Shown: positions 13,444-52,297 of the stretch, piece after piece
How the letters are laid out: each line of letters opens with the position of its first letter
Numbering within the stretch: position 1 is the stretch's first letter
Origin: Candidatus Ryanbacteria bacterium RIFCSPLOWO2_12_FULL_44_26
Lineage (GTDB): Bacteria > Patescibacteriota > Minisyncoccia > Ryanbacterales > HO2-45-13
DNA length: 64,000 bases
Direction: 5' to 3'
Assembly: GCA_001821765.1 (NCBI GenBank)
Contig: MHOA01000006.1
Coordinates: forward strand, 4,389 to 68,388
Notes under the pieces: generated by a model
Told to the model about the DNA's origin: nothing
Database searches by the model: none
The model's input: only the letters and a program-made list of their open reading frames with translations
Made by a program: the position numbers and the translations under genes

Positions 13444-15853
13444 ACGCCGCAACATTCCAAAAGCACCACGGCATGATCTTACACGCAAGCAACACATGGC
13501 GAAGAGCATAAAACACATCGCCTATCACAGAGTGACGGTGAAACACGTTGTATTTTTTCTGGCAACAGGAACGATTTTGGCGGCGCTGACCGTTCCGCAC
13601 ATCGCCTCTGCCGCCAGCGCTCCGTGCGACGCGTGGGGATTTATTAACATTAAATTCACTGCGGACTGCTTCTCGTGGATCATCTTAAACATATTATATT
13701 TGCCGCTCTACTTGGCGGGATGGCTGCTGCGGTTTGTTGCGGGATTTTTTGACATCGCCGTAAACATTTCCATCCAAAACGGCGCGTACGATCCCGGAGC
13801 CATCCCTGTTATCGGCCTTGGGTGGGGCATCACCAGAGATGTCGCGACCATGTTTCTTATTTTTATACTCCTTATCATTGCCATCGGCATTATCCTCCGG
13901 CTCGAGCGATTCGGATCAAAACAAATTCTCACCTATTTAATCATTGTGGGCCTCCTCATCAACTTCAGCCTGCCTATTTCACAGCTTGTTATTGACGCGT
14001 CAAACGTTCTTGCCCTTACGTTCTATAACGGCTTAGCGGCCAATGCCGGAGCGAGTCCCGCGCCCGCCGCCGTTGGAGGGCTTTTTCCGGCTCCGGCCGG
14101 TATTGCGGGCGTATTTGTTGAAGGACTGGCTCCTCAAAAAACACTGGAAACAGGAAGAACAGCTCCCGGCACCGAAATACTATCGGCGGACGGGGGGGCG
14201 CTGGTTTTAAAGGTGCTCTTGAACGGTATTATTTCGATGCTCATGGGAATTGCTATTATTCTTACTGCCGCGTTCGTCCTCGGCGCGCTTGGAATTCTTT
14301 TTATCATACGGATGGTCGTCCTTTGGATAATCATGATTCTCGCTCCCCTTGCATTTATCGCCATGATACTTCCCGTCACCCGCAGCTACGCGACAAGATG
14401 GTGGCGGAAACTTTTTGAACAGTCCTTCTTTGCTCCTTTTGCGCTTTTTTTCTTCTATCTGGTTGGGAAAGTCATTGAGAGCGGATTTTTAAAAAACGTA
14501 TTTGGAGTTACCGGAAACACGATGGTTACTGATGCCGCGGCGATGTCCGTACTTGTCTCAAATGTCAGAATTATCGCGCAGTATATTGCGCTTATTGTGC
14601 TGCTTATTGCGTCACTCATCGTTTCAAAAGAGCTGAGCGCTTATGGGGCCACTACAGCATTGGCGACGGGGCGCAAAGCCGGAAAGAGCGCGCAAGGCGC
14701 GGCTGGGCGAGCCGCCAGAAGAACGGCGCTTCGGGCCGCCGGCGCTGTTGCCGGAGGGGTCGCGGCGACGAGAGCCGGCAGAGCTGTTATGAACATTGTT
14801 CCCGGGGGGCGGGCGGGCGTACAGCGCGCGATGAGCGAGGGCGCCGAAGCAAGGGACTACAGAGCCAAACAAGAAGCCGAGCGGGTAAAGAATCTCTCTC
14901 CATATGACCTTGCAAGAGCCGCTCCAACGCTGACGCCCGAGGCGCGAGCAAGACTCTTTAAAGGGTGGAGACCGGAACAGCGGGAAAAATATGTAGCAGA
15001 GCTGGAAAAACGCGGGGAGTTGAGTAGTTTTGTAAAAAGCGTTACTGGGGTGGCCAAGGGCGGGGGCGGGGAGCGTTACGCTGGAATTGAAAAAGATCTG
15101 GCAAAATCGGTCGCGCCGCACAACGCAGAAGAGGCACTTAAAATTTCAAACCCCGACGTATTCATCACCACTTCGGGAGGCGAAGAAAGGCTTCCCGAAT
15201 TTGAAAAAGGAGAAGCGGCAAGCGAACGGGCGCAACGGGCGGCAAACGACCTTTTTGCATCTCTTACTCCGGAACAGCGCGCAAAGATCACGCGCGGCAT
15301 CGGCGCCGCCGACACCAATATCGGGAAACGCTACCGCGAGTACATAACACAACAAGGAAAACTGAATGAATTTACGGCTGATCGCGAAACCATAAAACAC
15401 ACCAATCGGATGCTTAACCAAATAGCGGCCGACTACGACGTGGACGTAACAGTGCACATGGAAGAGGCGAGAAAGGAGGCGGAATTTTCCAAAATGAAAG
15501 CCGCCGCGGAATCAAAGGGTATTTCCACAAAAGTACAGGTGGAAAGCCCCGGACGGAAGATAGGAGAGGACAAAACGCACGAGGAGTTAAAACGCGAACT
15601 TGAGTTCGCCGGAGCAAAGGTTGAAGTAACCAATGAGGAGGTTGAGGAAATCGCCAAGCAGAAAACTCTCGCTAAAGTGCAGGAGCGGCTCCGACGGGAA
15701 GGAAAGGGGCAGTTTGCAGACCAACTCTCATCCAATATGGGGACACAGCTATTCTTCAGCCCCAAGCGAGTAGAGATTCGCGGGGGGGAAGAAAAGAAAG
15801 AGAGCGTCACGCGCGAAGATGTTGAGGAAATGATGGAAAGTAAAAAAACATAA
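13403..15853 (+). CDS. Polytopic membrane protein with charged coiled-coil C-terminal tail; candidate TrbL/VirB6-like T4SS component (likely true start ATG 13496)
   Basis: At least 6 predicted TM helices in the first 400 aa, then an Ala/Gly/Arg-rich linker and a long E/K-rich tail. Lies immediately upstream of PrgI-like and VirB4 genes. Assignment is by architecture and context, not by a sequence motif. Confidence 0.5.
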   Translation: MACGETAHNGIFLKRRNIPKAPRHDLTRKQHMAKSIKHIAYHRVTVKHVVFFLATGTILAALTVPHIASAASAPCDAWGFINIKFTADCFSWIILNILYLPLYLAGWLLRFVAGFFDIAVNISIQNGAYDPGAIPVIGLGWGITRDVATMFLIFILLIIAIGIILRLERFGSKQILTYLIIVGLLINFSLPISQLVIDASNVLALTFYNGLAANAGASPAPAAVGGLFPAPAGIAGVFVEGLAPQKTLETGRTAPGTEILSADGGALVLKVLLNGIISMLMGIAIILTAAFVLGALGILFIIRMVVLWIIMILAPLAFIAMILPVTRSYATRWWRKLFEQSFFAPFALFFFYLVGKVIESGFLKNVFGVTGNTMVTDAAAMSVLVSNVRIIAQYIALIVLLIASLIVSKELSAYGATTALATGRKAGKSAQGAAGRAARRTALRAAGAVAGGVAATRAGRAVMNIVPGGRAGVQRAMSEGAEARDYRAKQEAERVKNLSPYDLARAAPTLTPEARARLFKGWRPEQREKYVAELEKRGELSSFVKSVTGVAKGGGGERYAGIEKDLAKSVAPHNAEEALKISNPDVFITTSGGEERLPEFEKGEAASERAQRAANDLFASLTPEQRAKITRGIGAADTNIGKRYREYITQQGKLNEFTADRETIKHTNRMLNQIAADYDVDVTVHMEEARKEAEFSKMKAAAESKGISTKVQVESPGRKIGEDKTHEELKRELEFAGAKVEVTNEEVEEIAKQKTLAKVQERLRREGKGQFADQLSSNMGTQLFFSPKRVEIRGGEEKKESVTREDVEEMMESKKT

Positions 15854-20614: not shown

Positions 20615-21688
20615 ATGACCGCAAGACTAACAATAAAAACCGTGCCACTTCTGTTTATGCTGTTCGTGTTTTCTGTTGCGCCCTCTACGACAAGCTCCCA
20701 GCCTCTGCCCGAAGCGGGCGGCACGGAAGACGGTGTCAGCGACGCCGTTTCTGATTTTCTAAAAAAACAAGAAAGCCGCTACCGCGCTTTCACGATATCC
20801 ATTCTTATAAAGCCGCAAACACCCGGACCGGGGGGGGTGGTTCGGGCAGTTGCGCAAGGTTTTGGTCGCAACCTCTCGGAAGAAATCATTGTGTGGTACA
20901 AAAACGGGAAGGAAGTGTTCCGCGGACGAGGAGAAACAACGTATGATCTTACAGCCGGCGCGCTAGGATCGGAAACCACAATCACCGCGTCTGTCATATT
21001 TCCCGACGGCGTAGTGAGGTCTGCAACCGAAACGGTTCGTCCGTCAGTGGTGCACCTTATATGGGAAGCAAAAACGCAAGTCCCGCCATGGTATAAAGGA
21101 AAGGCCGTCCCGTCTCCCGGGTCAAATATTGTTGTGGAGGCGATCCCCAAACTCTTTTTCAACGGTTCACCGCTTGATCCCGATAACTTAAACTACACAT
21201 GGAAAATAAATAATCAAACTCAGATACATGCATCAGGCAAAGGCAAACACGCAATACGGTTTCGTGCGGATAACATTGTTGGAGCGGTAAAAAACATTTC
21301 CCTCACCGTCTCAAGCGCAACGGGTGTGGTCAGCGCCAACGGCTCTATTTCCATTCCGGTCTACCGTCCCAAGGTGCTCCTATACAAAGAAGAGCCCCTC
21401 ATTGGAGCAAAAAATGAAAATGCTCTTAACACAATAACAGTGGTTTCGGGCGAAGACGCCTTGCTTCGCGCAGAACCGTTTTTCTTTAACAAAGGCGCCG
21501 CCAACAACCTTGAATACACATGGCGAGTGAACAATGATATTGTGACGGGATCCCAACGAAGCTCGCCGGTGCTGACATTAAAAACGGAATCCGGCGTGAG
21601 CGGAGAACAAGGCATTAATGTTTCCGTGAAGAACCCGGAAAATACTTTTCAAACAACAAACACATTAATTAACGCCTATGTGGAATAA
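20615..21688 (+). CDS. Secreted protein with three tandem ~100-aa repeats (beta-sandwich-like)
   Basis: 357 aa. Signal peptide (LLFMLFVFSVAPSTTSS). The repeat motif recurs three times (IVWYKNGKEV..., NYTWKINNQ..., EYTWRVNND...). Confidence 0.5.
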   Translation: MTARLTIKTVPLLFMLFVFSVAPSTTSSQPLPEAGGTEDGVSDAVSDFLKKQESRYRAFTISILIKPQTPGPGGVVRAVAQGFGRNLSEEIIVWYKNGKEVFRGRGETTYDLTAGALGSETTITASVIFPDGVVRSATETVRPSVVHLIWEAKTQVPPWYKGKAVPSPGSNIVVEAIPKLFFNGSPLDPDNLNYTWKINNQTQIHASGKGKHAIRFRADNIVGAVKNISLTVSSATGVVSANGSISIPVYRPKVLLYKEEPLIGAKNENALNTITVVSGEDALLRAEPFFFNKGAANNLEYTWRVNNDIVTGSQRSSPVLTLKTESGVSGEQGINVSVKNPENTFQTTNTLINAYVE

Positions 21689-22100
21689 TTGGAAAAGGCT
21701 TGTTTGGCTGTTTGCTCTCACTGCTCTATTTCTACTCGGCGCGGTCGGGGTTTCTTTGGCACAAACGTATCGGCTTAGTGCGCCGCTCCCCGGGGGCTCA
21801 ACAGAGGTCGGGACCTTCGCCGACTACACAAACAGCTTGTTTCCGTTTATGCTATCGCTCGCCGCCGGCCTTGCGTTTATCATGCTTATCATCGGCGGGT
21901 TGCAGTATATAGCGGCCGCCGGAAACCCCTCGCGCATCAGCGAAGCAAAAAGCCGCATCATCCACGCGGTCTTGGGCTTGTTGCTTGCCGCTCTTTCCGT
22001 TGTCATACTAAGAGCAATTAATCCGGATCTGGTAAACCTCAAGATAGATGTCGAGCCGGTAGGAAGATTTGAGGACCAAGGAGGCGGAGGGGGAATGTAA
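21678..22100 (+). CDS. VirB2/TrbC-like pilin candidate
   Basis: 140 aa. Signal peptide plus two hydrophobic helices separated by a short loop (LFPFMLSLAAGLAFIMLIIGGLQYIAAAGNP...IIHAVLGLLLAALSVVIL), and a Gly-rich C-terminus. This is the T4SS pilin architecture. Assignment is by architecture only. Confidence 0.5.
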   Translation: MWNNWKRLVWLFALTALFLLGAVGVSLAQTYRLSAPLPGGSTEVGTFADYTNSLFPFMLSLAAGLAFIMLIIGGLQYIAAAGNPSRISEAKSRIIHAVLGLLLAALSVVILRAINPDLVNLKIDVEPVGRFEDQGGGGGM

Positions 22101-25214: not shown

Positions 25215-26576
25215 ATGAACCACAAAGATCTCTGGAAACAAGTATTAAACCAGATAGAGCTGGATACATCCAAGGCAAACTTTGCAACGTGGTTTCAGAA
25301 CACAAACCTGGAAAGCATTGACGACGGGAGAGCTGTTGTCTCGGTGCCAAACGCCTTTGCCAAAGAGTGGTTGGAAAAGAAATACCACAAATCAATCGTG
25401 AGGGCGCTGCGCGGTCAAGCAAATTCCATCCGGTCTGTTGGGTATTTAATTTCTTCACAAAAAGACTTTGAAAAACAACACGTCAAACCGAACAGCAAGG
25501 CCGCTTTAAACGAGGAACAACTGGAGTTTAAGGAATTCTCGGTAGATCGGGAGACAAATCTCAACCCCAAGTACACATTCGACACATTCATCGTCGGCTC
25601 GTTTAACGAGCTGGCCCATGCCGCAGCCCTATCAATAACAAAAAACCTTGGTGCGTTGTATAACCCGTATTTCATTTACGGCGGCGTCGGGTTGGGGAAA
25701 ACACACCTTCTACAGGCAATCGGCAACGAGGTAAAAAAAAGAAACCCAATCTTAAAAATCTTATATCTGACGTCTGAGAAGTTTATGAACGAGCTTATTT
25801 CGCTTATTCAAAACAGAGAGCCACTCAATTCATTTAAAGAAAAATACCGGAACGTCGATCTACTTATTATAGACGACGTTCAATTTATAGCCGGTAAAGC
25901 TAAAACGGAGGAAGAATTCTTTCACACTTTTAATGTGTTATACGAAAACGGAAAACAGATTGTGTTTTCGTCCGATCGTCCGCCGCAAGCGATCCCAAAC
26001 CTGGAAGAGCGGCTTCGTTCAAGATTTGAGGCTGGGCTTATTGCCGATATTGGTGAACCAGAATATGAAGCGCGTCTCGCAATACTAAAGTCAAAGATTT
26101 CCGGGAGTGCGCGTCCATTATCTGATGAGGTGTTAGAATACATCGCTTCTGTAATACAAAAAAACATCAGAGAGCTTGAGGGGGCGCTTAATTTATTAAA
26201 TGCAAAAGAAAAGGTTAAAGAGGCGCCTCTAACGCTCGATGAAGTAAAAAATACCCTCAATCAACTCAGCGCGCGCTCTCAACGGGTTGTTTCTACTCAA
26301 CAGATACTAAAAGTGGTTTCGGTGTTTTATAATATTGACGAAAGAGACCTGCTGGCGCGAAGCAGGAAGCGTGAGATTGTAAAGCCGAGACAGGTGGCCA
26401 TGTACCTTATTCGTGAAGACTTTAACGGATCTTACCCATATATAGGACAAAAACTTGGCGGCAGAGACCACACAACCGCACTGCATGGTTATGATAAAAT
26501 TTCTAAGGCGCTAAAAAAAGACGCAAAACTTGTGGAAGAGTTGAGGTTAATCCGTGAAAAATTGTACAAATCATAA
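25215..26576 (+). CDS. dnaA: Chromosomal replication initiator protein DnaA
   Basis: 453 aa. AAA+ Walker A GGVGLGKTHLLQAIGNE, Walker B LLIIDDVQF, and the C-terminal DNA-binding domain (VAMYLIREDFNGSYPYIGQKLGGRDHTT). Confidence 0.95.
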   Translation: MNHKDLWKQVLNQIELDTSKANFATWFQNTNLESIDDGRAVVSVPNAFAKEWLEKKYHKSIVRALRGQANSIRSVGYLISSQKDFEKQHVKPNSKAALNEEQLEFKEFSVDRETNLNPKYTFDTFIVGSFNELAHAAALSITKNLGALYNPYFIYGGVGLGKTHLLQAIGNEVKKRNPILKILYLTSEKFMNELISLIQNREPLNSFKEKYRNVDLLIIDDVQFIAGKAKTEEEFFHTFNVLYENGKQIVFSSDRPPQAIPNLEERLRSRFEAGLIADIGEPEYEARLAILKSKISGSARPLSDEVLEYIASVIQKNIRELEGALNLLNAKEKVKEAPLTLDEVKNTLNQLSARSQRVVSTQQILKVVSVFYNIDERDLLARSRKREIVKPRQVAMYLIREDFNGSYPYIGQKLGGRDHTTALHGYDKISKALKKDAKLVEELRLIREKLYKS

Positions 26577-26751: not shown

Positions 26752-27861
26752 ATGCAGTTTGAGTGTCTTGTTGAAAACATTAAAAACGCTGTAAATATTG
26801 TTGAAAAAATCACCGGTAAAAATACAACAATACCCATTCTTAATTCTTTTTACATAGAGAGTTTAAGTAAAAACATCAATATCTCAACGACAAACCTAGA
26901 ACTAGGAATTCAAACTCCAATAAACGGTATCGTGAAAAAAACAGGAGTGGTTGTTGTTCCTTCAAAGGTGTTTAGTTCTTTTATTTCCTCGCTTCCAATC
27001 AGAGAGAGAGTAATAGTCACTTCGGAAGGTAATAATATTGTTTTGGAAACAGAAAAACACCGAACAGTTATCAAAGGGTTTGACGTTGATGAATTTCCTC
27101 CGTTCCCTGTTATAGAAGAAATTTACAATATTCAAATAACAAAAACACATTTACTGGATGCCTTGAGACGGAGCATAATTGCTGCTTCTTATTTTAATAC
27201 CAAACAGGAGCTTTCAAGTGTTTTTATTTCACGAAATAACGAGTTAACGTTTGCTTCCACGGATAGTTTTCGGCTGGCGGAAGAAAGAATAGAGAAAAAA
27301 TACTTTGAGGCATCAAAAAACAATTTTTCCTTTCTCGTTCCGGTTCGAACAATAGATGAACTGGTGCGCCTGCTTGAGTTGGATAAAAGCGGCGTTGTTG
27401 CATTCAACGTGTCAGGCAACGGTATTGTTGTGTCAACAGAGTTGTTTACACTCTTTTCGCGATTGATCGAAGGAAAATTTCCTGAATATAAAGATATTGT
27501 TCCCGTTAGATTTAAAACAACGGCAGTTGCAAAAAAACACGACCTCGCAGATCATATTAAACAAGCCCGTGTTTTTTCTGGAAAACTCAACGAACTTAAA
27601 TTAACAGTGGACCCGGAGGGTTTGATATGTTTTACAGCACAAGACAACAACATTGGCGAACATCAATCAAACATAAAAGCCAAAGTAACTGGAGAGAAGA
27701 CAATTCTCTCTGTTAATTGGAAATACCTTTTAGATGGGGTGTCTGGTTTTAAGGAAGGGGAAATTTATATGGGTTTTAACGATCCTTTGGATCCGATTCT
27801 TTTAAAGCCAAACACACAAGGATCTTTTTTTCACATTATTATGCCCATGAGAGGAGTGTGA
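26752..27861 (+). CDS. dnaN: DNA polymerase III beta sliding clamp
   Basis: 369 aa in the conserved position after dnaA. Three-domain clamp length and motifs (STDSFRLAE). Confidence 0.9.
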   Translation: MQFECLVENIKNAVNIVEKITGKNTTIPILNSFYIESLSKNINISTTNLELGIQTPINGIVKKTGVVVVPSKVFSSFISSLPIRERVIVTSEGNNIVLETEKHRTVIKGFDVDEFPPFPVIEEIYNIQITKTHLLDALRRSIIAASYFNTKQELSSVFISRNNELTFASTDSFRLAEERIEKKYFEASKNNFSFLVPVRTIDELVRLLELDKSGVVAFNVSGNGIVVSTELFTLFSRLIEGKFPEYKDIVPVRFKTTAVAKKHDLADHIKQARVFSGKLNELKLTVDPEGLICFTAQDNNIGEHQSNIKAKVTGEKTILSVNWKYLLDGVSGFKEGEIYMGFNDPLDPILLKPNTQGSFFHIIMPMRGV

Positions 27862-34150: not shown

Positions 34151-35824
34151 TTAAAACTCGCCGGCAACGCGAATAAGCTCGGCAACGCTGGTAATTCCTT
34201 CGGCTGCTTTTAGTATACCGTCTTGGTGCAACGTTAGCATCCCTTGTGCTCTTGCGGCATCCAACACCTCTGCCTCCGAGGGATTTTTAAAAATCAGTTT
34301 TTCGATTTTTTCGTCAATCGCAAAAACCTCAAATATGCCGATGCGGCCCTTAAATCCAACCATATTGCAGGCCTCACAACCGTCCGCCTCCCAGAATTTT
34401 ATATGTTGTAAGTCCGGCCTCTTGTATGGTTTTGGAAGCCCTTTTAGTATTCGTTCCGCATAGTCAAGGTCTCTTGCGGAAGGCGCGTACTGGTGTTTAC
34501 ATTGTTGACACAGGTGCCTGATCAATCTTTGAGCAATGGCCACGTTTATGGCCGGAGCTATGATGTTTGGTTTGGCGCCGATGTCAATGAGTCTTGGGAT
34601 TGTTGCCGGAGCATTGTTGGTGTGGAGAGTGGAAAATACAAGGTGTCCGGTGAGTGCGGCATGTAAAGCGGTGCGCGCGGTTTCGAGGTTGCGGATTTCT
34701 CCAACGAGTATGACATCAGGATCTTGTCTGAGAATTGACTGGAGGCCGGTTTCGAACGTATATTTTCCGTTGGTATCCACTTGTGTTTGGGTGATGCCCT
34801 TGATATGGTATTCAACCGGATTTTCAATAGTTACAATGTTGATTTGGGGCGAGTTTATCTTTTTTATGAACGCGTACAGCGTTGTGGTCTTTCCAGACCC
34901 TGTCGGTCCCGTCGTTAAAATCATGCCGTTAGGTTTTCGAATTTCCTTGGAAAGCAGTTCGTAAACCGGTTGCTGCATGCCGAGCTCTTCAAGCGAAAGA
35001 CTGATGGTTTTGGGATTAAGTAAACGCAGCACCGTAGTTTCCCCAAAAGGACCCGGAAGTGTTGAGGCTCGTATCTCAATATCCTCGTCCGCGGCGCGTA
35101 TGGTAAAGCGCCCATCCTGCGCACTGTCGCGGACGTTCAGCTTTAACCCCGACAGCAGTTTAATACGAGAAAGGAGCAACTTATACAACTCATGCTTAAA
35201 CGATGTTATGTTGTGGAGCATGCCGTCAAGGCGGAGGCGCATGGTCACCGTTTCTTCCGAGGGTTCAATATGGACATCTGATGCGCCAAGTTTAAGGCCG
35301 CTTGCCAGAATAAGTTGCAGCAGTTCCGTTGTGTTCATTCGCGGCCCTTTTGCAATGAGGTCTCGGAGCAATTCAGCTACATTGTCAAAAATTTTTAAAC
35401 GTTCTCCAAGCTCAGCCATCTGCGATTTTCCGATGACAATCATTCCCTCAAAAGTTTCCGTCCCTTTTGTGATTTCCCTATATCTTTCCCACGTGTGTTG
35501 TAGCCCTGCAGGCGAAGACAAATAAAGGTTAAAACTGTAACCGTTTTTCCTCAACTCTGTAAGGAAGGATTTGGTGTGCGGAAGCGTCGGGTTTTTAACA
35601 GCAATGTCAAGGATTCTCCCTTTTCTTCTTATGATAGCGACGCCATTTTCTTTGGCTATTTGTTCGGATATCGTGTTCAGCGCCTCAAGATCAATTGAGG
35701 CGCGAAACAAGTTCACGTATGGGATTTTATACTTTTCGGAGAGAATGCGGGCAAGATCTTCTTGTTCTCTTTTTTTAATTACTTCAAGCTGTTCTTCCTG
35801 TTTTTTTTCATCGAATGTCACCAC
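34151..35824 (-). CDS. pilB: Type IV pilus / type II secretion assembly ATPase (PilB/GspE family)
   Basis: 557 aa. GPTGSGKTTTLYAFI (Walker A), VGEIRNLETA, a tetracysteine-like CQQC...CEAC motif, N-terminal GspE_N-like region. Confidence 0.9.
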   Translation of the reverse strand: MVTFDEKKQEEQLEVIKKREQEDLARILSEKYKIPYVNLFRASIDLEALNTISEQIAKENGVAIIRRKGRILDIAVKNPTLPHTKSFLTELRKNGYSFNLYLSSPAGLQHTWERYREITKGTETFEGMIVIGKSQMAELGERLKIFDNVAELLRDLIAKGPRMNTTELLQLILASGLKLGASDVHIEPSEETVTMRLRLDGMLHNITSFKHELYKLLLSRIKLLSGLKLNVRDSAQDGRFTIRAADEDIEIRASTLPGPFGETTVLRLLNPKTISLSLEELGMQQPVYELLSKEIRKPNGMILTTGPTGSGKTTTLYAFIKKINSPQINIVTIENPVEYHIKGITQTQVDTNGKYTFETGLQSILRQDPDVILVGEIRNLETARTALHAALTGHLVFSTLHTNNAPATIPRLIDIGAKPNIIAPAINVAIAQRLIRHLCQQCKHQYAPSARDLDYAERILKGLPKPYKRPDLQHIKFWEADGCEACNMVGFKGRIGIFEVFAIDEKIEKLIFKNPSEAEVLDAARAQGMLTLHQDGILKAAEGITSVAELIRVAGEF

Positions 35825-35838
35825 TCTGTCATTGTATC

Positions 35839-36690
35839 CTATAGGGTTGTCTTGAGCAATTTCCTTGCCTCGAGTTCTGCTTCTGTGAAGCTGTTAAAAT
35901 CAGGAATAAGGAAATAGTCGCTTTTCGGAACGACTCCCAACTTAGATGAGAGCACGGAAAGAGCCCGGGCATCTTTTGAGTAAATGAGCCCTCCAACCGA
36001 TTCCTTCGGCGATCCCTGCCAGAGCACCACTACAAAACGAGGAAGTCCCGCAAGCGCCGCGATAACGCTCGTCATCGGAAAAATAGCCGTTGGAGCAGTG
36101 TTCGTCTTTGTGAAATCTGATGGAGCAAGAAAAGACCAAAAAGTGTTCAGCTCCTTTTCCGTACGAGCACGGGCAAGTAACCTGGAAAGGAGCGGCAAAG
36201 AACTGACACCAGCCGGTTGTGGCGGCGTGCCCCCTTTTTTAAGAAAGAAGAATTCTTGTCCGTTTGTATTTCTGAGGCGCGAGGCAAGAGTTTTTTTTGC
36301 CTCATCCTCATTTAAAAATCCTATAGCAACAACCAAATCACTTTCCGGCAGCATTTGTTCAAATGCGAAACTGCTTTTTGTGATGGGATTATAACTTGTA
36401 AAAAATACCACCAGCTTCTCGCCCTGTTTCTCATATCGGAGCTCCTCAATCGGGAAGCGGCTGGTGTCAATAGAGACCGCGAAGTCCTTGGGGGCCAGCG
36501 CTTCGTCTTCAAAAAGCGCATGCCAACTGCTCCGCACTGATTCTTCTCCACCGACGATAAACACTTTTTCGCCGCCGGCCTTCCTTATGGCGAATGCGGC
36601 GAGCAGTATCTCGTCTGAAGTATCATCGGGCACAAGAACAGCAACACTGTTCGCGTTGTCTATTTTTTCCTTTAAATCGCGCATGCTCAC
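35839..36690 (-). CDS. Hypothetical protein, possibly catalytically degenerate DHH-family (NrnA-like) fold
   Basis: 283 aa. VAVLVPDDTSDEILLAAFAIRKAGGEKV resembles DHH motif I/II spacing, but the DHH triad position reads GFLNED. Weak inference. Confidence 0.3.
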   Translation of the reverse strand: MSMRDLKEKIDNANSVAVLVPDDTSDEILLAAFAIRKAGGEKVFIVGGEESVRSSWHALFEDEALAPKDFAVSIDTSRFPIEELRYEKQGEKLVVFFTSYNPITKSSFAFEQMLPESDLVVAIGFLNEDEAKKTLASRLRNTNGQEFFFLKKGGTPPQPAGVSSLPLLSRLLARARTEKELNTFWSFLAPSDFTKTNTAPTAIFPMTSVIAALAGLPRFVVVLWQGSPKESVGGLIYSKDARALSVLSSKLGVVPKSDYFLIPDFNSFTEAELEARKLLKTTL

Positions 36691-36780
36691 GGATTATTCT
36701 TATCATATAAAGGCGGTTGTCGCAATACTTTCTTATGGGGCTTGGTTTGGTTTGGGGCGTTGTCAGCCGGCGTTGGTGTG

Positions 36781-36809
36781 TTGACACATCGGGCTTTAAG
36801 GTGTATAAT
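36781..36809 (+). promoter_or_regulatory. Perfect sigma70 consensus promoter (TTGACA, 17-nt spacer, TATAAT)
   Basis: TTGACAcatcgggctttaaggtgTATAAT read directly. Followed by a short hairpin (ctctttc...gaaagag), an AGGAAGGA RBS and an ATG at 36873. Confidence 0.5.
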
Positions 36810-36872
36810 TACCGCAAATCAACAACCGCTCTTTCTTTGCAAAAAAGAAAGAGCCAGAAGGAAGGAAATGCA

Positions 36873-37328
36873 ATGAAAGCTCTTTTGATGTTTTTGGTCG
36901 CGGCATGCGTGCTTGCTTTGCCGGCGGCTGTCTACGCCGGCGGTTGTCACTATCACGGCAGCCGGCTGTGCTGTTTCGAGCACGGCCGTAGCGCCTATGG
37001 CGGCTACGACGATGGCTACAGGAACTACGGTGACTCCGGCAATCTTCTCGAGTATCGGCTTGAGTCGGCAGCTGCTGATGGAGCAGCGGGACTCATCCGA
37101 ACAGTAAGTGGCGCCGTAATTACCGGCGCACAGCAAAGAATGTTTCAGGCCACCGAGCCGTCCGGAAAAACCGGTTGCCAGCCGCACGACGTAGAATGTC
37201 GGCGGCAAGCGGGAGCAGAAGCAGGTCGGCTGGCCGGTCTTTCCAGATCGGCTGCCGTTGCAGAGCAGGAGGCATATCTGCAGGCGCTGTGTGATGCACA
37301 CCCAGCATCTGCAGAGTGTCGAAGGTGA
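36873..37328 (+). CDS. Small secreted Cys/His-rich protein in a GC-rich cassette
   Basis: 151 aa. Signal peptide MKALLMFLVAACVLALPAAVYA. Mature part has a CHYH...CC motif and an internal repeat (GCQPHDVECRR / LCDAHPASAECRR). The ORF-track entry 36717..37328 extends upstream of the promoter; ATG 36873 has the RBS. Local GC is clearly higher than the flanks. The opposite-strand ORF 36819..37301 is regarded as spurious. Confidence 0.5.
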   Translation: MKALLMFLVAACVLALPAAVYAGGCHYHGSRLCCFEHGRSAYGGYDDGYRNYGDSGNLLEYRLESAAADGAAGLIRTVSGAVITGAQQRMFQATEPSGKTGCQPHDVECRRQAGAEAGRLAGLSRSAAVAEQEAYLQALCDAHPASAECRR

Positions 37329-37353
37329 GCAGTCGCGTGTCGCACGCGATAGG

Positions 37354-37394
37354 GAGCGGCAGTGCTTTTAAGCAGTGCCGCTCTTTTTGTTTTC
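37354..37394 (+). terminator. Rho-independent terminator after the Cys-rich gene
   Basis: GAGCGGCA...TGCCGCTC 8-bp GC stem followed by TTTTTGTTTT, directly after the stop codon. Confidence 0.6.
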
Positions 37395-37424
37395 ATGTTC
37401 TGGGCGGCGTGCTAACCTAAAACC

Positions 37425-37883
37425 ATGCTTGTTGAGATTAACACAACATCTGAACGGGAGACGAAAAAAGTGGCAGCATTGCTGGCGGAGGAAATAATGA
37501 AAGAAAAGCTTCGCCGCCGACACGCACTCATCATTGCCCTTATCGGAGAGCTGGGCGCCGGAAAGACCACATTTGTTAAGGGGTTTGCACGCGGTCTTCA
37601 TATTGCGGGGCGTATATTGTCTCCAACGTTTACCCTGCTTAAGGTTCACCCCTTGGAGGCAAAATACTACAGTTTTTTGTATCATGTCGATTGTTACCGA
37701 ATTACCGCAAGGGACGTAAAACGGGCACTTGGATGGGAAAAACTTTTAAAAGACCGAAGGAGTATCGTTGTTGTTGAGTGGGCTGACCGCATAAAAAAAC
37801 TTTTGCCAAAAAGGCGCATTGACGTGTTTTTCTCTTGCAGCAACAAAACCTCTAGAACGCTAAAGATGGTGTTTCATGAGTAA
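37425..37883 (+). CDS. tsaE: tRNA threonylcarbamoyladenosine biosynthesis protein TsaE (YjeE)
   Basis: 152 aa. P-loop LIGELGAGKTTFVKG and SPTFTL motifs of TsaE. Confidence 0.85.
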   Translation: MLVEINTTSERETKKVAALLAEEIMKEKLRRRHALIIALIGELGAGKTTFVKGFARGLHIAGRILSPTFTLLKVHPLEAKYYSFLYHVDCYRITARDVKRALGWEKLLKDRRSIVVVEWADRIKKLLPKRRIDVFFSCSNKTSRTLKMVFHE

Positions 37884-40500
37884 AGAAAAAAATACAATTG
37901 TTCTTTTGGATATGCACGCGCTCATACACCGCTCTTATCACGCGTTGCCGGAACTTACAAATGCGGAGGGAGAACCGATTGGAGCGGTGTACGGAGTATC
38001 ATCCGTTCTCCTAAAACTTATAAGAGAACTGAAGCCAACACACCTAGCGGCGGCATTTGATCTGCCGGAACCCACCTTTAGGCATATTGCATATGAGCAG
38101 TATAAGGCCCATCGTGAAAAAGCACCCGACGAGCTCATAAAGCAATTTGAAAAAGCGCGTGATATTGTACGCGCTTTCAACATACCAATCTACGAAGCGC
38201 CCGGATTTGAGGCCGACGACATTATTGGCACACTGGCCGATCTCCTTAAAAAAGAGAAAGGCACGCGTGTCATCATAGCGTCAGGGGATCTTGATACTCT
38301 CCAGCTTGTTGAAGGGGAAAAGGTGACTGTGTACACGCTTCGCAAAGGCATTCAAGACACGATTATATATGATGAGCAGGCTGTCATGGACCGTTTTGGT
38401 TTTTCCCCATCCTTCCTCGCTGACTTTAAGGGGTTGAAAGGGGATCCATCGGACAACATCATCGGCATAAAAGGGATTGGCGAAAAAACGGCGGCACGTT
38501 TGGTTGGCGAATACGGATCTTTGGAGAATTTTTATACAAAGACAAAAGACCAAAAACCGGAGTGGCTTTCAGAGCGACTGTATCAAAAACTCTGCTTAGG
38601 CAGGGAGGACGCGTTTTTTTCAAAGGAACTCGCGCTTATCAGAAAAGACGCGCCGATTCGGGCAACGTTGAGCGGTCTTACGTGGTCCTTCCCAAAAGAA
38701 AGCGTGAAGAGCGTTTTTATGAAATTGAACTTTAAAAGTTTACTTTCCCGCTTGCCAGACACTTCCACAGCCGGTGGCGAACTTCTCGCGGACAGCAATG
38801 ATCCCAAAACTGAAACCGCAGTCAAGGCGTTCAGCGCCGACAAAAGAAACTTTCAGCTGGACATAGCGTCCGCGGGCGCCGTGTCTGTGTATATGGCTGA
38901 AGACGGAGCAGCGTTTTTTTTGTGTGATGAAAGGACGCTGTGGAGAGCAGAAACATCCGAAAAAGTGATTTTTTTTAGGACAGCGTTGGAGCATATAAGA
39001 AAGAACCCGATATTCATCGGTCACGATCTAAAAGGTTTTTTTAGATTTCTCCTGCGCAACAACATACCCCTCCCGGAAACGTATTTTGATACCATGGTCG
39101 CTTTTTGGGTGCTTTATCCGGATGTCCAACATCCAAAGTTGTTCGATTTGTCTGACCGCTTTCTTTTTCAGCGCCCGGACACGGATGCCCGGCACGCAAT
39201 ATTACTCCCTGTGATTGAACGAAAACTGCGCCAAGAACTTGAAAAAGCAGAGATCCATAACGTCTACTTTGACATGGAGCTGCCGCTTATTCCTGTCCTT
39301 GCAATGATGGAGGAACACGGAGTTGAGTTTAAAGCGGAAGTGTTACACGCGATTTCCAAAGATGTACGGCAGCGTCTGTATGCGCTTGAAAGGGAAATAT
39401 TTAAACTTGCCGGGGTCAGTTTCAATATCCAATCTCCCAAGCAACTTTCCGAGCTGTTATTTTCTAAGCTCAGGCTTGAATCAAAAGGGATCCGAAAAAC
39501 AGCCGAAACCAAGGCCCCTTCTACCAGGAACTCGGAACTCGCAAAGCTAAAAGAAGCGCATCCGATAGTCTCAAAAATAATCAGTTTTCGTGAGCTTTCC
39601 AAGCTCCTTTCAACCTATATTGAAACGCTTCCAAAGCTTGTTGGAAGCGATGGGAGAATCCACACGCAATTTAACCAGACGGGAACTGTCACTGGCAGGC
39701 TTTCCTCCAAAGATCCAAACCTTCAAAACATTCCTATAAGAACCAATGAAGGGGAGGCGATTCGAAGAGCTTTTGTTGCAAAGAAAGGTTACGAGTTTGT
39801 TGCATTTGATTATTCCCAAATTGAGCTTAGAATTGCAGCCTCCTTCGCTGGGGATGAGGTTATGATGAATGCCTTCAAGGAAGGGAAGGATATCCACCGC
39901 CTTACGGCGGCAGCCATAAACCACATTATGCCCGAGGAGGTAACGCCACTTATGCGGCGACGCGCTAAAACGATCAATTTCGGCATTCTCTATGGAATGG
40001 GAGAAAATGCTTTATCTGAACTTATTGGCGTCACAAGGGCCGATGCGCGGGCGTATTTGGATGCTTATTTCCGAAACTTTAAAGGAATTGCTCAATATAT
40101 AAAGAAGACGAAAGAGCGCGCTCGTGAAAAAGGATATGTTGAAACCCTTTATGGAAGGCGCCGGTATCTTCCGGGGATTCGTAGCAAAGAGTTCCGAGTC
40201 GTGCGCGAAGCCGAACGCATGGCGGTAAATGCGCCGGTGCAAGGAACCGGGGCCGATATTATAAAGCATGCCATGCTCGCCATTGAGAAAGAGTTTCGTT
40301 TGCTGGGCGGCAGTCGTGATGTGAGGATGCTGCTTCAAATACACGACGACCTGCTTTTTGAAATCAGAAAGGGCGTAGTTGTCCAGTCCGCCAGAAAAAT
40401 AAAGGACATTATGGAAACAGCCGCCGCTCTCGCCGTTCCACTGGTGGTAGAAGTAAAAAGAGGCGTGAATTGGACAGACATGAAGGAGTTGCGCCTATGA
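37876..40500 (+). CDS. polA: DNA polymerase I
   Basis: 874 aa. N-terminal 5'-3' exonuclease (FEADDIIGTLA, GDLDTLQL), C-terminal family A polymerase motifs (DYSQIELR, RRRAKTINFGILYG, QIHDDLLFE). Confidence 0.95.
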   Translation: MSKEKNTIVLLDMHALIHRSYHALPELTNAEGEPIGAVYGVSSVLLKLIRELKPTHLAAAFDLPEPTFRHIAYEQYKAHREKAPDELIKQFEKARDIVRAFNIPIYEAPGFEADDIIGTLADLLKKEKGTRVIIASGDLDTLQLVEGEKVTVYTLRKGIQDTIIYDEQAVMDRFGFSPSFLADFKGLKGDPSDNIIGIKGIGEKTAARLVGEYGSLENFYTKTKDQKPEWLSERLYQKLCLGREDAFFSKELALIRKDAPIRATLSGLTWSFPKESVKSVFMKLNFKSLLSRLPDTSTAGGELLADSNDPKTETAVKAFSADKRNFQLDIASAGAVSVYMAEDGAAFFLCDERTLWRAETSEKVIFFRTALEHIRKNPIFIGHDLKGFFRFLLRNNIPLPETYFDTMVAFWVLYPDVQHPKLFDLSDRFLFQRPDTDARHAILLPVIERKLRQELEKAEIHNVYFDMELPLIPVLAMMEEHGVEFKAEVLHAISKDVRQRLYALEREIFKLAGVSFNIQSPKQLSELLFSKLRLESKGIRKTAETKAPSTRNSELAKLKEAHPIVSKIISFRELSKLLSTYIETLPKLVGSDGRIHTQFNQTGTVTGRLSSKDPNLQNIPIRTNEGEAIRRAFVAKKGYEFVAFDYSQIELRIAASFAGDEVMMNAFKEGKDIHRLTAAAINHIMPEEVTPLMRRRAKTINFGILYGMGENALSELIGVTRADARAYLDAYFRNFKGIAQYIKKTKERAREKGYVETLYGRRRYLPGIRSKEFRVVREAERMAVNAPVQGTGADIIKHAMLAIEKEFRLLGGSRDVRMLLQIHDDLLFEIRKGVVVQSARKIKDIMETAAALAVPLVVEVKRGVNWTDMKELRL

Positions 40501-50470: not shown

Positions 50471-50627
50471 ATGTTTTTTATTCTTTCTTTGCAATCCTGA
50501 CGTTTCTTTCATAATTTAAAATAAGAAAGTCGGGATCCCAATCTTGCGTCGGGATGTAATAGTCCCGGCACCACACAGGACGCAGGGCAAACAAAACGCT
50601 GGCTCTTTTGCCCCGCACCAGCCCTGT

Positions 50628-50764: not shown

Positions 50765-51277
50765 TTGCCCATACAAACAACAATGAAAATAACCCCGATC
50801 AAACAAAAAGATGATTCCGCTTGCGGCCCAACCAGTATCCAGATGGTGCTGGCATACTTTGGATTTTCTTATACATTTGAAATGATCGCAAAAATTTCAC
50901 AGTACAAGAAAAAGGATGGTCTTTCCAATAAAGATCTTGTTAAAACGCTGCGAGTATTACATTTTACCGTTCAAGAAAAAGCAAACGCGACATGGGCTGA
51001 TCTTACGCGATACAATACGGCTGATAAGGCTATCATCGTGTCATGGATGATGTTCGGATATATTGGACACTTTAGTGTTGTTGAAAAAGTTGATAAAAAA
51101 TATATCACCTTGGCAAATCCACACGATGGCAAGCATGCCAAGATGGAGAAAATGGCATTCATGCGCCTCTGGATGGATTATGACGACATGTGGTACCCGA
51201 TAAAAAATACTGACATTCAGCTGCGTTGGATGTGTATTATCTCAAAGAAAGGTAAGAAAAAAGCCCGAGGCAGGTGA
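50765..51277 (+). CDS. Standalone C39-like (papain-fold) cysteine peptidase domain protein
   Basis: 170 aa, TTG start. DDSACGPTSIQMVLAYFG (catalytic Cys context of peptidase C39 / C39_2) and a downstream HFSVV His. No ABC transporter adjacent. Confidence 0.5.
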   Translation: MPIQTTMKITPIKQKDDSACGPTSIQMVLAYFGFSYTFEMIAKISQYKKKDGLSNKDLVKTLRVLHFTVQEKANATWADLTRYNTADKAIIVSWMMFGYIGHFSVVEKVDKKYITLANPHDGKHAKMEKMAFMRLWMDYDDMWYPIKNTDIQLRWMCIISKKGKKKARGR

Positions 51278-51289: not shown

Positions 51290-51357
51290 AAGTCGTCTTA
51301 CTGTGATTCATATACCCAACCGAGAGGGCACATCAGAGATTTTTGCTAAAATATGTT

Positions 51358-51427
51358 CAAGCTTGGTCGTATAAATACACCAGAACAAAACTTTTCGGCT
51401 TTTTGGTGTATTTATACGACCAAGCTT
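51358..51427. repeat. 24-bp perfect inverted repeat (hairpin, 21-nt loop)
   Basis: CAAGCTTGGTCGTATAAATACACCA ... TGGTGTATTTATACGACCAAGCTT read directly. Lies between the C39 gene and the tRNA-Phe promoter. The + strand ORFs through it (51343..51564, 51353..51595) look spurious. Confidence 0.6.
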
Positions 51428-51517
51428 TTAAGCAATCGCAGACACACCCCCATAGTGTCCGCTTCAGGAGCACTACTGCCGGGGTTCGGTTACCCCCCAC
51501 TTTTTACCTATATGTTT

Positions 51518-51601: not shown

Positions 51602-51914
51602 GCTTGGGTAGCTCAGTGGTAGAGCGCTTGCCTGAATCTTCGGGCCATCCCGCAGTAATGCGGGATTGCAAATCGGGTGAAATCGGAGAAACTTCCGCCA
51701 TAAACGGAACAACCCCGAGCCAAGCCGAAGCACATAACGTCTTATGTGCTCGGAAGGTGTAGAGACTATCCCTTTAAGGGAGTACTCCATTAGATGAATG
51801 CAGATTTATTAAATGGGGGAAGCGCCCGACATCCGCCCTAGGCGGATGATGATATAGTCCAAGTTGCTCAGGAAGAGCAAGGCGTCGGGAGTTCGATTCT
51901 CCCCCCAAGCACCA
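51602..51914 (+). tRNA. tRNA-Phe (anticodon GAA) interrupted by a group I intron in the anticodon loop; CCA encoded
   Basis: Exon 1 GCTTGGGTAGCTCAGTGGTAGAGCGCTTGCCT (acceptor, D-arm, 5' anticodon stem, C32 U33). Exon 2 GAAGAGCAAGGCGTCGGGAGTTCGATTCTCCCCCCAAGCACCA (anticodon GAA, 3' anticodon stem GCAAG pairs with CTTGC, 5-nt variable loop, T-arm GGGAG-TTCGATT-CTCCC, acceptor CCCAAGC, A73, CCA). The 5' exon ends in U and the intron ends in G, as required for group I splicing. The exact splice junction is ambiguous by the shared G/GAA. Confidence 0.7.
51634..51871 (+). ncRNA. Group I self-splicing intron (about 238 nt) within tRNA-Phe
   Basis: Contains the conserved group I core P7 strands: an R-like element AGAGACTATCC (GACTA) and an S element GATGATATAGTCC (matches consensus AAGATATAGTCC). 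GACTA/TAGTC are complementary as in P7. No ORF (too short for a homing endonuclease). Confidence 0.7.
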
Positions 51915-51927
51915 GTATTAAACTTAT

Positions 51928-52001
51928 GGGCGGCTAGCTCAGTTGGTTAGAGCGTCTCGTTTACACCGAGAAGGCCTCAGGTTCGAATCCTGAGCCGCCC
52001 A
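51928..52001 (+). tRNA. tRNA-Val (anticodon TAC), CCA not encoded
   Basis: GGGCGGC-TA-GCTC-AGTTGGTTA-GAGC-G-TCTCG-TTTACAC-CGAGA-AGGCC-TCAGG-TTCGAAT-CCTGA-GCCGCCC-A. U33, TAC, A37. Confidence 0.85.
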
Positions 52002-52297
52002 TTAAAATTTTCATTACAGCTTCTTTCCAATCCTTATCGTTATCTGCACAGAGCATTTCATCTGTGGCACATTTGTGTTTATTGGCAACTTGCTTGTATA
52101 TTTCTTTTTCATTCTCAAAACGCATTTCGATTTATTTTGAGCCCCAATTTCTAACTACGGCGGGCGTTTAGCGCAAGCCGTCGCTTTTCCATACGAGCTC
52201 TTTTTAAGAATGGAGTACTATAACAACATAACGTGGCCCTATCGCGCGGCATTATGTTATTGTGGTGAAGGTTGGCCATCCGGCACAAAATCAAACA

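Follow-up and report, generated by a model that had tools for sequence, protein, structure and literature searches.

Introduction

Helical-hairpin domains of the CHCH or twin-CX9C type, such as those of Cox17 and the Mia40 substrates, carry two CX9C motifs on antiparallel helices. Among fungi, the effectors known as SSCPs or SCPs (small, secreted, cysteine-rich proteins) combine small size, a signal peptide, multiple Cys residues, restriction to a lineage and rapid evolution, and they are found in effector-rich accessory regions (PMC5038961, PMC7170778). Partial likenesses to both are offered by a gene that we analysed within a stretch of 64,000 nucleotides (hereafter the window) on contig MHOA01000006.1 of Candidatus Ryanbacteria bacterium RIFCSPLOWO2_12_FULL_44_26, where a promoter, an open reading frame (ORF) of 151 codons and a terminator are packed between the gene of a conserved 283-aa protein and tsaE. 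We give a probability of about 0.6 to the reading that this cassette is a genuine monocistronic gene of Candidatus Ryanbacteria (Parcubacteria, Candidate Phyla Radiation or CPR) encoding a small exported Cys/His-rich protein, and that it locally fills an expression slot of ancestral origin instead of having been imported.

Like the fungal effectors, the 151-aa protein is small, has several Cys residues behind a predicted signal peptide, is lineage-restricted and appears to evolve rapidly. It differs from them in belonging to another domain of life, in that any host target would be hypothetical and in its genomic setting, which is one conserved slot of the core genome instead of an accessory region. 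Our search of the literature for such proteins in CPR or Parcubacteria found nothing relevant.

Transcription unit and coding strand

The unit opens on the forward strand with a sigma-70-type promoter (36781-36809) that matches the consensus at 12 out of 12 positions: the -35 hexamer TTGACA (36781-36786) and the -10 hexamer TATAAT (36804-36809) are separated by a 17-nt spacer, within the 17 +/- 1 nt typical of this class. The initial annotation had described it as a textbook promoter that is rare in the window, and indeed it is the single perfect TTGACA-17-TATAAT in 64 kb, against a chance expectation of 0.03. Transcription would start near 36816, which would give a leader of ~57 nt bearing a stem-loop (36828-36854, +; 11-bp perfect stem, 5-nt loop, 8 nt 5' of the ribosome-binding site, RBS) with a folding free energy (dG) of -15 kcal/mol and a z-score of -2.8 that occurs as a single copy in the window. 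The RBS read from the sequence, GGAAGGAAAT (36860-36869, +), belongs to the string AAGGAAGGAAA, in which AGGA (36863-36866) ends 6 nt ahead of the ATG at 36873; relatives carry A(A/G)GGAGG at the equivalent position. Downstream of the ORF (36873-37328, +), which comprises 151 codons and a TGA at 37326-37328, an intrinsic terminator spans 37332-37396 (+) and consists of an 8-bp GC hairpin (37332-37350) and a 15-bp hairpin (37351-37386) followed by the U-tract UUUUUGUUUU. It was missed in a simple consensus scan because of one internal mismatch; its strength, claimed in the initial annotation, is borne out by a dG of -36.6 and a z-score of -5.9, none of 200 shuffled sequences being equally stable. 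Perfect promoter, leader, ORF and terminator together support a self-contained transcription unit, in which the consensus promoter would drive a monocistronic transcript of ~580 nt ending at a strong double-hairpin terminator just 5' of tsaE-polA. The gene is probably strongly expressed.

The leader hairpin shows a further peculiarity: its 5' arm with flank, CCGCTCTTTCTTTGC, resembles the 3' arm of the terminator with its T-tract, CCGCTCTTTTTGTTTTC (36841-36854 versus 37380-37393, and also 36825-36840 versus 37377-37394), and hence complementarity between the leader hairpin's 3' arm and the 3' end of the transcript reaches 86 %. This likeness may be the remnant of an older terminator or may be due to chance. 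No palindrome of the leader type was evident in the sequences upstream of the relatives' slot genes, which were inspected by eye without folding.

Both strands of the cassette are open, with an antisense ORF of 160 aa at 36819-37301, and the strand had initially been chosen from signal peptide, RBS and promoter. A codon-frame model trained on 46 genes of the window, which placed 92 of 92 control chunks of 151 codons in the right frame, selects the forward ORF as coding and scores the antisense ORF best as the reverse complement of a coding frame, in agreement with the signal peptide and the RBS. Searches of Pfam and NCBIfam gave no family support to the opposite-strand ORFs of 160 and 83 aa (best match DUF2749, E = 0.13), so that the better homology that might have favoured the other strand did not appear; absent families and the antisense-type codon score speak against these ORFs as true genes. 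A heuristic scan of the window for exported ORFs (N-terminal K/R, hydrophobic core, no early D/E) retrieved the 151-aa ORF as the only Cys-rich candidate with an RBS, and no paralogues of its product were found inside the window. Therefore, from the codon-frame call, the duplicated ECRR motif and the Sec-like N-terminus described below, and the unsupported antisense ORFs, we conclude on sequence evidence that the cassette is a protein-coding gene of the forward strand.

The predicted exported protein

The N-terminus of the protein reads M-K followed by an 18-residue hydrophobic core, ALLMFLVAACVLALPAAV, and by VYA/GG, the slash marking the putative signal peptidase I site. By heuristic reading, the n-region charge, a hydrophobic region within the usual 10-20 residues and small residues at -3/-1 agree with a Sec substrate, and the signal peptide of the initial annotation is indeed textbook-like in its sequence features (residues 1-22, MKALLMFLVAACVLALPAAVYA, 36873-36938, +). 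Export via Sec and cleavage after VYA22 are thus the most likely fate of the product, and the cleavage region VYA/GGCH resembles the VFA/GGGH of a slot protein from a relative, Candidatus Ryanbacteria RIFCSPHIGHO2_02_FULL_45_17b (L012). Since the proteins encoded at the same place in three other relatives are clear lipoproteins (L004, LSLAAC; L005, FLSGC; L014, FSGC), it could be argued that this one too is processed by signal peptidase II and anchored through C25 or C12 instead of being soluble and secreted: past the hydrophobic core the chain runs AGG-C25, and VAA-C12 agrees with a minimal lipobox. A lipobox reads [LVI][ASTVI][GAS]C and closes the hydrophobic region. We consider such anchoring unlikely. 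At C25 the residues at -3 and -4 (A and Y) depart from the usual L/V/I at -3, and Y at -4 fails the PROSITE pattern PS51257; C12 is too near the N-terminus, in the middle of the continuous hydrophobic core; and VYA/GG is a canonical signal peptidase I site, mirrored by the VFA/GGGH of L012, which has no Cys.

Soluble export being preferred, the product would be a mature extracytoplasmic protein of ~129 aa with an N-terminal part that is flexible and rich in Tyr/Gly/Asp/His/Cys, an Ala/Gly-rich helix at the centre and, C-terminally, a compact helical hairpin. The eight Cys residues lie at positions 12, 25, 33, 34, 102, 109, 140 and 149; the mature part therefore holds seven and not eight, as first proposed, because C12 sits within the signal peptide. 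The mature N-terminal region (residues 23-58, GGCHYHGSRLCCFEHGRSAYGGYDDGYRNYGDSGNL, 36939-37046, +) is Tyr/Gly/Asp/His-rich with 3 Cys, is probably disordered to judge from a pLDDT (predicted local distance difference test) below 50 in the full-length model, and shares its compositional theme with the H/R/Y/G/D-rich mature N-termini of the relatives' slot proteins.

The repeat that had been annotated as C-x-[PA]-H-x(3-5)-E-C-R-R is real as a duplicated motif at the protein level, with spacings to be corrected: two residues separate H and E in CQPHDVECRR (residues 102-111, 37176-37205, +) and four in CDAHPASAECRR (residues 140-151, 37290-37325, +). ECRR was obtained twice in none of 200,000 shuffles of the mature sequence, and the two copies are written in different codons. 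Both fall in the C-terminal 55 aa (residues 97-151, 37161-37325, +), for which a single-sequence AlphaFold2 model predicts a helix-loop-helix (mean pLDDT 83.8; predicted template modelling score, pTM, 0.62) with helices at 99-115, 117-120, 125-141 and 144-150. In the model the first arm carries C102 and C109, the second closes with C140 and the short third helix bears C149; H105 and H143 are each enclosed by a Cys pair. The two C-x2-H-xn-E-C-R-R motifs would clamp the hairpin at its open end, where the four Cys would meet, alone or together with the two His; either two disulfides or a Cys4His2 metal site could form this clamp, and we rate the two about equally likely. Metal binding or disulfide stapling by the duplicated motif is plausible; no match to known metal-binding modules (HMA/CopZ MxCxxC, metallothionein, CusF, PCuAC and similar) was found in Pfam or NCBIfam, and the protein has no MxCxxC.

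It is here that the CHCH domains come closest, sharing a predicted helix-loop-helix of ~50 aa with a Cys pair on each arm, and an analogous stapling by two disulfides in an oxidising extracytoplasmic compartment may be envisaged for the exported protein. The resemblance is an analogy of topology only. The spacings are CX6C and CX8C, not CX9C; a His lies inside each pair, which ends in E-C-R-R; a helix break falls within the second pair; ours is a bacterial protein with predicted export via Sec; and neither a Pfam CHCH match nor any Foldseek match of the C-terminal model in the Protein Data Bank (PDB; 0 matches) was obtained.

A conserved slot with variable cargo

The cassette lies ~10 kb from dnaA, amid core genes. 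To its left, the order is dnaA (25215-26576), dnaN (26752-27861), a PBP1-type gene, ruvC, yebC, ruvB, a PilB/GspE-type ATPase gene (34151-35824) and, adjoining the latter, the gene of the conserved 283-aa protein (35839-36690, -), which is divergent from the cassette, has no Pfam or PDB match and has no function assigned. To its right it is followed by tsaE (37425-37883, +; Pfam TsaE, E = 1.6e-31), polA (37876-40500), a histidine kinase gene, holA, uvrB and ruvA. Homologues of the 283-aa protein (30-53 % identity) led us to 11 distinct Parcubacteria loci from metagenome-assembled genomes (MAGs) or metagenomes and, with tsaE placed in the same order, they define a syntenic slot. Left out of this set was the lineage of L007-L009, where, as a separate observation, an AbiEii/DUF6922 toxin-antitoxin pair and a 70-aa HMA (CopZ-like) gene replace the exported protein and tsaE (L007, 184-1367; likewise L008 and L009).

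In 10 out of the 11 relatives the gap between the 283-aa gene and tsaE holds 1-3 small genes on the tsaE strand whose products have an N-terminal signal peptide or lipobox and a mature part of odd composition, often with 2-4 C-terminal Cys. The closest relative, L004, has a 146-aa four-Cys lipoprotein (723-1163 of that locus); L012 has a 210-aa His/Arg/Tyr-rich exported protein (3271-3903) that belongs with the 196-250-aa His/Arg/Tyr/Gly/Asp-rich proteins of L010, L012 and L019; the slot is filled by a gene pair (236-275 aa and 89-99 aa) in L011, L013, L016 and L026; and Gly-zipper lipoproteins with a four-Cys tail are encoded in L005 and L014, the former being the 190-aa Gly-zipper_YMGG lipoprotein P0010 (5638-6210). 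Extra ORFs with non-exported products occur in L010 (ABC-transporter-like) and L016 (235 aa).

What remains constant is the regulatory frame. Upstream of the first slot gene the best sigma-70 match scores 9-12 out of 12 in all 11 relatives, with a scanned spacing of 17 nt in ten and 16 nt in L028; the 12 promoters, that of the window included, align without internal gaps over a common TTGAC and TAnnnT, and the -10 form GGTGTAnnnT is common to the window and several relatives. A strong intrinsic terminator closes the slot in each of the nine relatives checked, the 5' arms of several being alike (CGGCAGAGAGAAG; the window has CGGCAG). These comparisons show a promoter and a terminator that are ancestral to the slot and orthologous between the window and its relatives. 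The slot thus consists of a clade-conserved promoter and terminator around a cargo of 1-3 small signal-peptide or lipoprotein genes, whose divergence is several-fold faster than that of the flanks and leaves them unalignable between lineages. The positional counterparts share with the gene of the window its place, an alignable strong promoter, RBS, terminator, small size and a signal peptide or lipobox, and they are likewise near-orphans. They differ from it in that no statistically supported similarity extends beyond the signal peptide, in being His/Arg-rich where the window protein is Ala/Gly/Cys-rich, and in GC content, which clearly exceeds that of the flanks in the window copy alone.

Two other sequence features were recorded at the borders of the slot. 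The motif ATTCCTAGCA(C), on the slot strand, is conserved beside the 283-aa gene's start in almost every relative (L004-L028), a diverged version, TTCTTATCA, being present near that start in the window (36691-36713); it may be the RBS or a promoter element of the 283-aa gene. Moreover, very long near-perfect hairpins with stems of ~20-30 bp lie between the slot terminator and tsaE in L013 (2491-2915) and L026 (674-1043), and these could be palindromic mobile or repeat elements.

Orphan status and divergence rates

The 151-aa protein is identical to OGZ41873.1, OGZ42821.1, OGZ48233.1 and OGZ50009.1, each a 'hypothetical protein' of Candidatus Ryanbacteria RIFCSP MAGs, and the intact identical gene was found on at least 23 contigs from several samples of the Rifle aquifer, whose data sets come from a published study (PMC5079060), as well as in these 4 NCBI MAG accessions. 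Beyond that the protein is, by every search made, an orphan. Among ~15 billion proteins the only matches came from its own Candidatus Ryanbacteria population of the Rifle aquifer; 5.8 billion protein clusters, searched by word index, and 1.84 billion representatives, searched exhaustively with phmmer, yielded nothing other than the protein itself and a truncated form of it; Pfam and NCBIfam at E <= 10 gave no family and PHROGs no match; the best phmmer hit among PDB sequences was not significant (E = 0.15); and tblastn against plasmids and phages found nothing. A 110-aa phage protein (viral contigs L031/L032) sharing YGGYDDGY...NLLExRLE at 31 bits was rejected as a chance match, because the 8-mer was itself the search seed, hundreds of 31-bit matches are to be expected, by our own estimate, from so large a database, and the match was absent from phmmer.

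Such orphan status could be accounted for by the pace at which slot proteins diverge, which, in pairs of relatives that are still alignable over these proteins, is far above that of their flanks. Between L026 and L011 the flanks (283-aa protein/TsaE) are 88/78 % identical and the slot proteins 30 % and 20 %; between L012 and L019 the figures are 78/71 % and 37 %; and between L013 and L026 they are 70/70 % versus 30 % and 34 %. The pairwise comparisons thus show, at the sequence level, that slot proteins evolve much faster than the genes beside them. Given that the window and its nearest relative, L004, have flanks only 53/46 % identical, loss of all detectable similarity is expected between their slot proteins, and their global identity of 23 % is marginal relative to the 17.3 +/- 2.5 of shuffled sequences. 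The cleavage region and the H/Y/G/R/D-rich start of the mature chain that the window protein shares with slot proteins of relatives are suggestive. The product would be a surface-bound or secreted factor with high expression and rapid evolution, which could act in the envelope, in adhesion, in host contact or in metal handling.

Weighing the reading

Several points weigh against an exported protein descended within the slot. The codon-frame margin of the forward ORF is positive and low (0.078 per codon, against 0.20 +/- 0.06 in known genes). The signal peptide was assigned by heuristics and the C-terminal hairpin was modelled from a single sequence; the full-length AlphaFold model (helices 69-92, 107-120 and 125-142) was poor, at a pLDDT of 50, and was discarded on that account. 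Homology to the relatives' slot proteins beyond the signal peptide was not found by BLASTP, by phmmer against the full set of 2,454 ORFs from the fetched loci or by hhalign with two small family alignments. P0010 and P0011 carry Gly-zipper_YMGG (PF13441) and the window protein does not, hhalign aligning the signal peptide only at a probability of 2.6 %; a family profile from the C-terminal Cys region of the L005 type was abandoned, as that region is itself an orphan represented by 2 proteins only. Common ancestry with the relatives' slot proteins accordingly finds no support beyond the signal peptide, and the cargo may have been replaced instead of having diverged rapidly. To this must be added two deletion alleles and an unusual self-complementarity of the nucleic acid that a fast-evolving exported protein does not explain.

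The two alleles come from the same aquifer data set and would inactivate the gene. The variant P0013 (SRC, SRR3989344), which reads ..VVSRR/CCFEHG.., fits a 195-bp loss between imperfect direct repeats CAGCCGGC... (36764-36784 and 36959-36979, +; offset 195 nt), and the loss would remove promoter, 5' untranslated region (UTR), start codon and signal peptide. A frameshifting 247-bp deletion between two CGGCA microhomologies (36956-36960 and 37203-37207, +; offset 247 nt) fits P0002 (SRC, SRR3989338), which reads ..GGCHYHG/RREQKQVGWPVF.. and continues in the +1 frame. Both are single protein sequences assembled by Plass (10.1101/386110), their junctions being reconstructed from protein sequence only, and DNA of P0002 is not on record.

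From inactivating alleles it follows that the gene may be dispensable. One could go further and see in the ORF a dispensable or decaying product of an unstable spacer rich in hairpins and repeats, with a promoter that mainly serves tsaE-polA through read-through and a peptide of little or no selected function. Two independent loss-of-function deletions between short GC-rich direct repeats, the extreme divergence or turnover of the slot cargo, quasi-palindromes on both strands, the low codon-frame margin with an atypical codon usage and the lack of a strong promoter between the terminator and tsaE would all be in line with decay. However, the intact and identical ORF recurs on the contigs of many samples; the promoter-proximal ORF of the slot keeps its signal peptide or lipobox in 10 of 11 relatives, a feature that would be lost under random drift; the two copies of the Cys/His motif differ by synonymous changes; the C-terminal domain is predicted to fold confidently; and the deletion alleles could be rare variants or chimeric reads. 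We therefore hold decay to be improbable.

Folding of the slot genes

Bacterial coding regions, such as those studied by Katz and Burge in 2003, are reportedly selected for local mRNA secondary structure. The coding sequence (CDS) of the window behaves in the same direction, in that it folds better than synonymous permutations that keep its protein and codon counts (z -3.9), than codon shuffles (z -3.7) and than dinucleotide shuffles (z -4.3; -4.2 and -4.9 in our own shuffles), whereas tsaE gives z-scores of -0.3, -0.4 and 0.1 in the respective tests. Among 55 background windows of 456 nt (mean z -0.49, sd 1.48) only one, with a 24-bp perfect palindrome, was more extreme. The property recurs in the slot CDSs of L005, L010, L012, L013, L019 and L026 (6/8 relatives tested, z -3.8 to -5.8), and in five genes (those of the window, L005, L012, L019 and L026) it persists under synonymous permutation (z -3.0 to -5.5); such strong self-complementarity was absent from the slot CDSs of L004 and L028 and from neighbouring genes.

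The slot genes part from the coding regions of Katz and Burge in the size of the effect, extreme for single genes, in its equal presence on the antisense strand (z -4.7 to -5.3) and in the lack of conserved pairs. Because the antisense strand folds equally well, the signal is symmetric in the DNA and not specific to RNA. RNAalifold on three orthologues of a related slot gene (~65 % protein identity) returned a covariation penalty of +5.8 and retained under half of the energy found for single sequences, so that pairing is not conserved; we reject a conserved RNA structure on this alignment. Two readings of the self-complementarity can be offered, namely selection for 'any' stable mRNA structure where the protein imposes few constraints on its gene, or a mutational regime of slippage and template switching, the latter fitting the deletion alleles P0013 and P0002.

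That the transcript is mainly a structured non-coding or dual-function RNA in which the ORF is incidental is very unlikely. The folding scores of the CDS, their resistance to codon shuffling and synonymous permutation, their recurrence in relatives, and a transcript framed by strong promoter and terminator with both strands open could be read that way; the symmetry of the signal and the covariation penalty speak against it, as do Rfam searches, which returned nothing at the gathering threshold and chance-level matches only at E <= 10, an ORF with RBS, signal peptide, frame-specific codon signal and protein-level repeat, and the ORFs of 146-290 aa with signal peptides that relatives have at the same place.

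As a separate observation, the most extreme folding in the window (z -6.95) belongs to 51355-51428, where a 24-bp perfect inverted repeat, AAGCTTGGTCGTATAAATACACCA ... TGGTGTATTTATACGACCAAGCTT, encloses a loop of ~20 nt. It matches no Rfam family and is intergenic, between the ORF at 50765-51277 and an intron-containing tRNA described below.

Base composition and origin of the cassette

The contrast in base composition that had drawn attention to the cassette is real: the ORF has a GC content of 0.598, compared with 0.466 +/- 0.028 in 46 genes of the window (z 4.7) and 0.47 in the window at large, and 0.4 % of 453-nt windows are as GC-rich. The excess resides in the first and second codon positions (GC1 and GC2, 4.2 sd above the gene mean) more than in the third (GC3, 2.2 sd above). 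From its amino acids and the synonymous preferences of the window, a GC content of 0.582 is expected for the ORF, the residual of 0.016 being ordinary among the 46 genes (-0.002 +/- 0.014, maximum 0.029). The excess is thus almost fully explained by a composition rich in Ala (18.5 % versus 8.5 % in window genes), Gly (11.9 % versus 6.6 %), Arg and Cys (5.3 % versus 0.5 %) and poor in Lys, Ile (each 1.3 % versus 7.1 %) and Asn. Synonymous codon choice is mildly unusual (z -2.9; minimum of the 46 genes -2.1), GGG and CGC being absent and CGG over-represented, and provides the only residual, mild hint of an atypical origin. Elsewhere in the window, the GC-richest stretch of 453 nt (~14631-15083, GC 0.63), which exceeds the cassette, was found inside the ORF 13403-15853.

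The initial annotation had further proposed that the cassette was possibly acquired horizontally, a suggestion that we abandon: horizontal acquisition is unlikely because the GC content follows from composition, the frame of the slot is ancestral and no donor was found in the databases searched. An origin of the whole block, or at least of the CDS, in a GC-richer donor would account for the GC of 0.60 against 0.47, for a GC3 (0.563) equal to the maximum of the 46 genes, for the codon usage and for the unalignable protein of L004 in the same slot, but it has very little probability given an ordinary GC residual, a promoter, 5'UTR start and terminator orthologous to those of relatives at a core-genome site, no integrase or transposase seen in the neighbourhood, no tRNA within ~13 kb (the nearest at 50627), short direct repeats only inside the transcription unit, no homologue among ~15 billion proteins, plasmids, phages or viral contigs, and a fast divergence of slot proteins that is directly observed in sister lineages.

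Other features of the window

Two features apart from the cassette deserve mention. At 51602-51924 (+) a tRNA-Phe(GAA)-like gene is apparently interrupted in its anticodon loop by a group I intron (Rfam 51624-51880, 71.7 bits); ARAGORN made no call on the raw sequence and called Phe GAA after in-silico splicing with boundaries at 51630/51867 or 51631/51868, and an intact tRNA-Val(TAC) follows at 51927-52002. A 140-aa ORF at 21678-22100 (+) has a signal-like N-terminus and a Pfam T4SS_pilin match (E = 1.6e-10), and adjoins unannotated ORFs of 357 and 392 aa.

Significance

Taken alone, the gene is one more lineage-specific hypothetical exported protein, already in GenBank, and of modest value. 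An ancestral regulatory frame and a GC content set by amino acids do correct the tempting reading of a GC-rich promoter-terminator block as an import. More is to be gained from the slot, a small and well-delimited locus of Ryanbacteria-like Parcubacteria in which exported proteins have changed beyond recognition while the flanking genes are still 50-90 % identical.

It is tempting to speculate, tentatively and with more doubt than confidence, that the slot is a conserved 'expression frame' ~10 kb from oriC whose cargo is continually remade, slippage and template switching in hairpin-rich, quasi-palindromic DNA generating new exported peptides. If this were true, part of the odd composition, whether Ala/Gly/Cys or His/Arg/Tyr, would come from translating self-complementary nucleic acid, the orphan would be one snapshot of the turnover, and the deletion alleles could serve as on/off variants. 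The slot would then be a dedicated hotspot of episymbiotic CPR bacteria, in which a surface or secreted protein with high expression is diversified or renewed nearly de novo.

CPR bacteria are generally regarded as living in attachment to a host. The fastest-evolving and most strongly expressed of their surface proteins are natural candidates for host contact or for evasion of phages, and the slot between the 283-aa gene and tsaE offers a concrete place to look for them.

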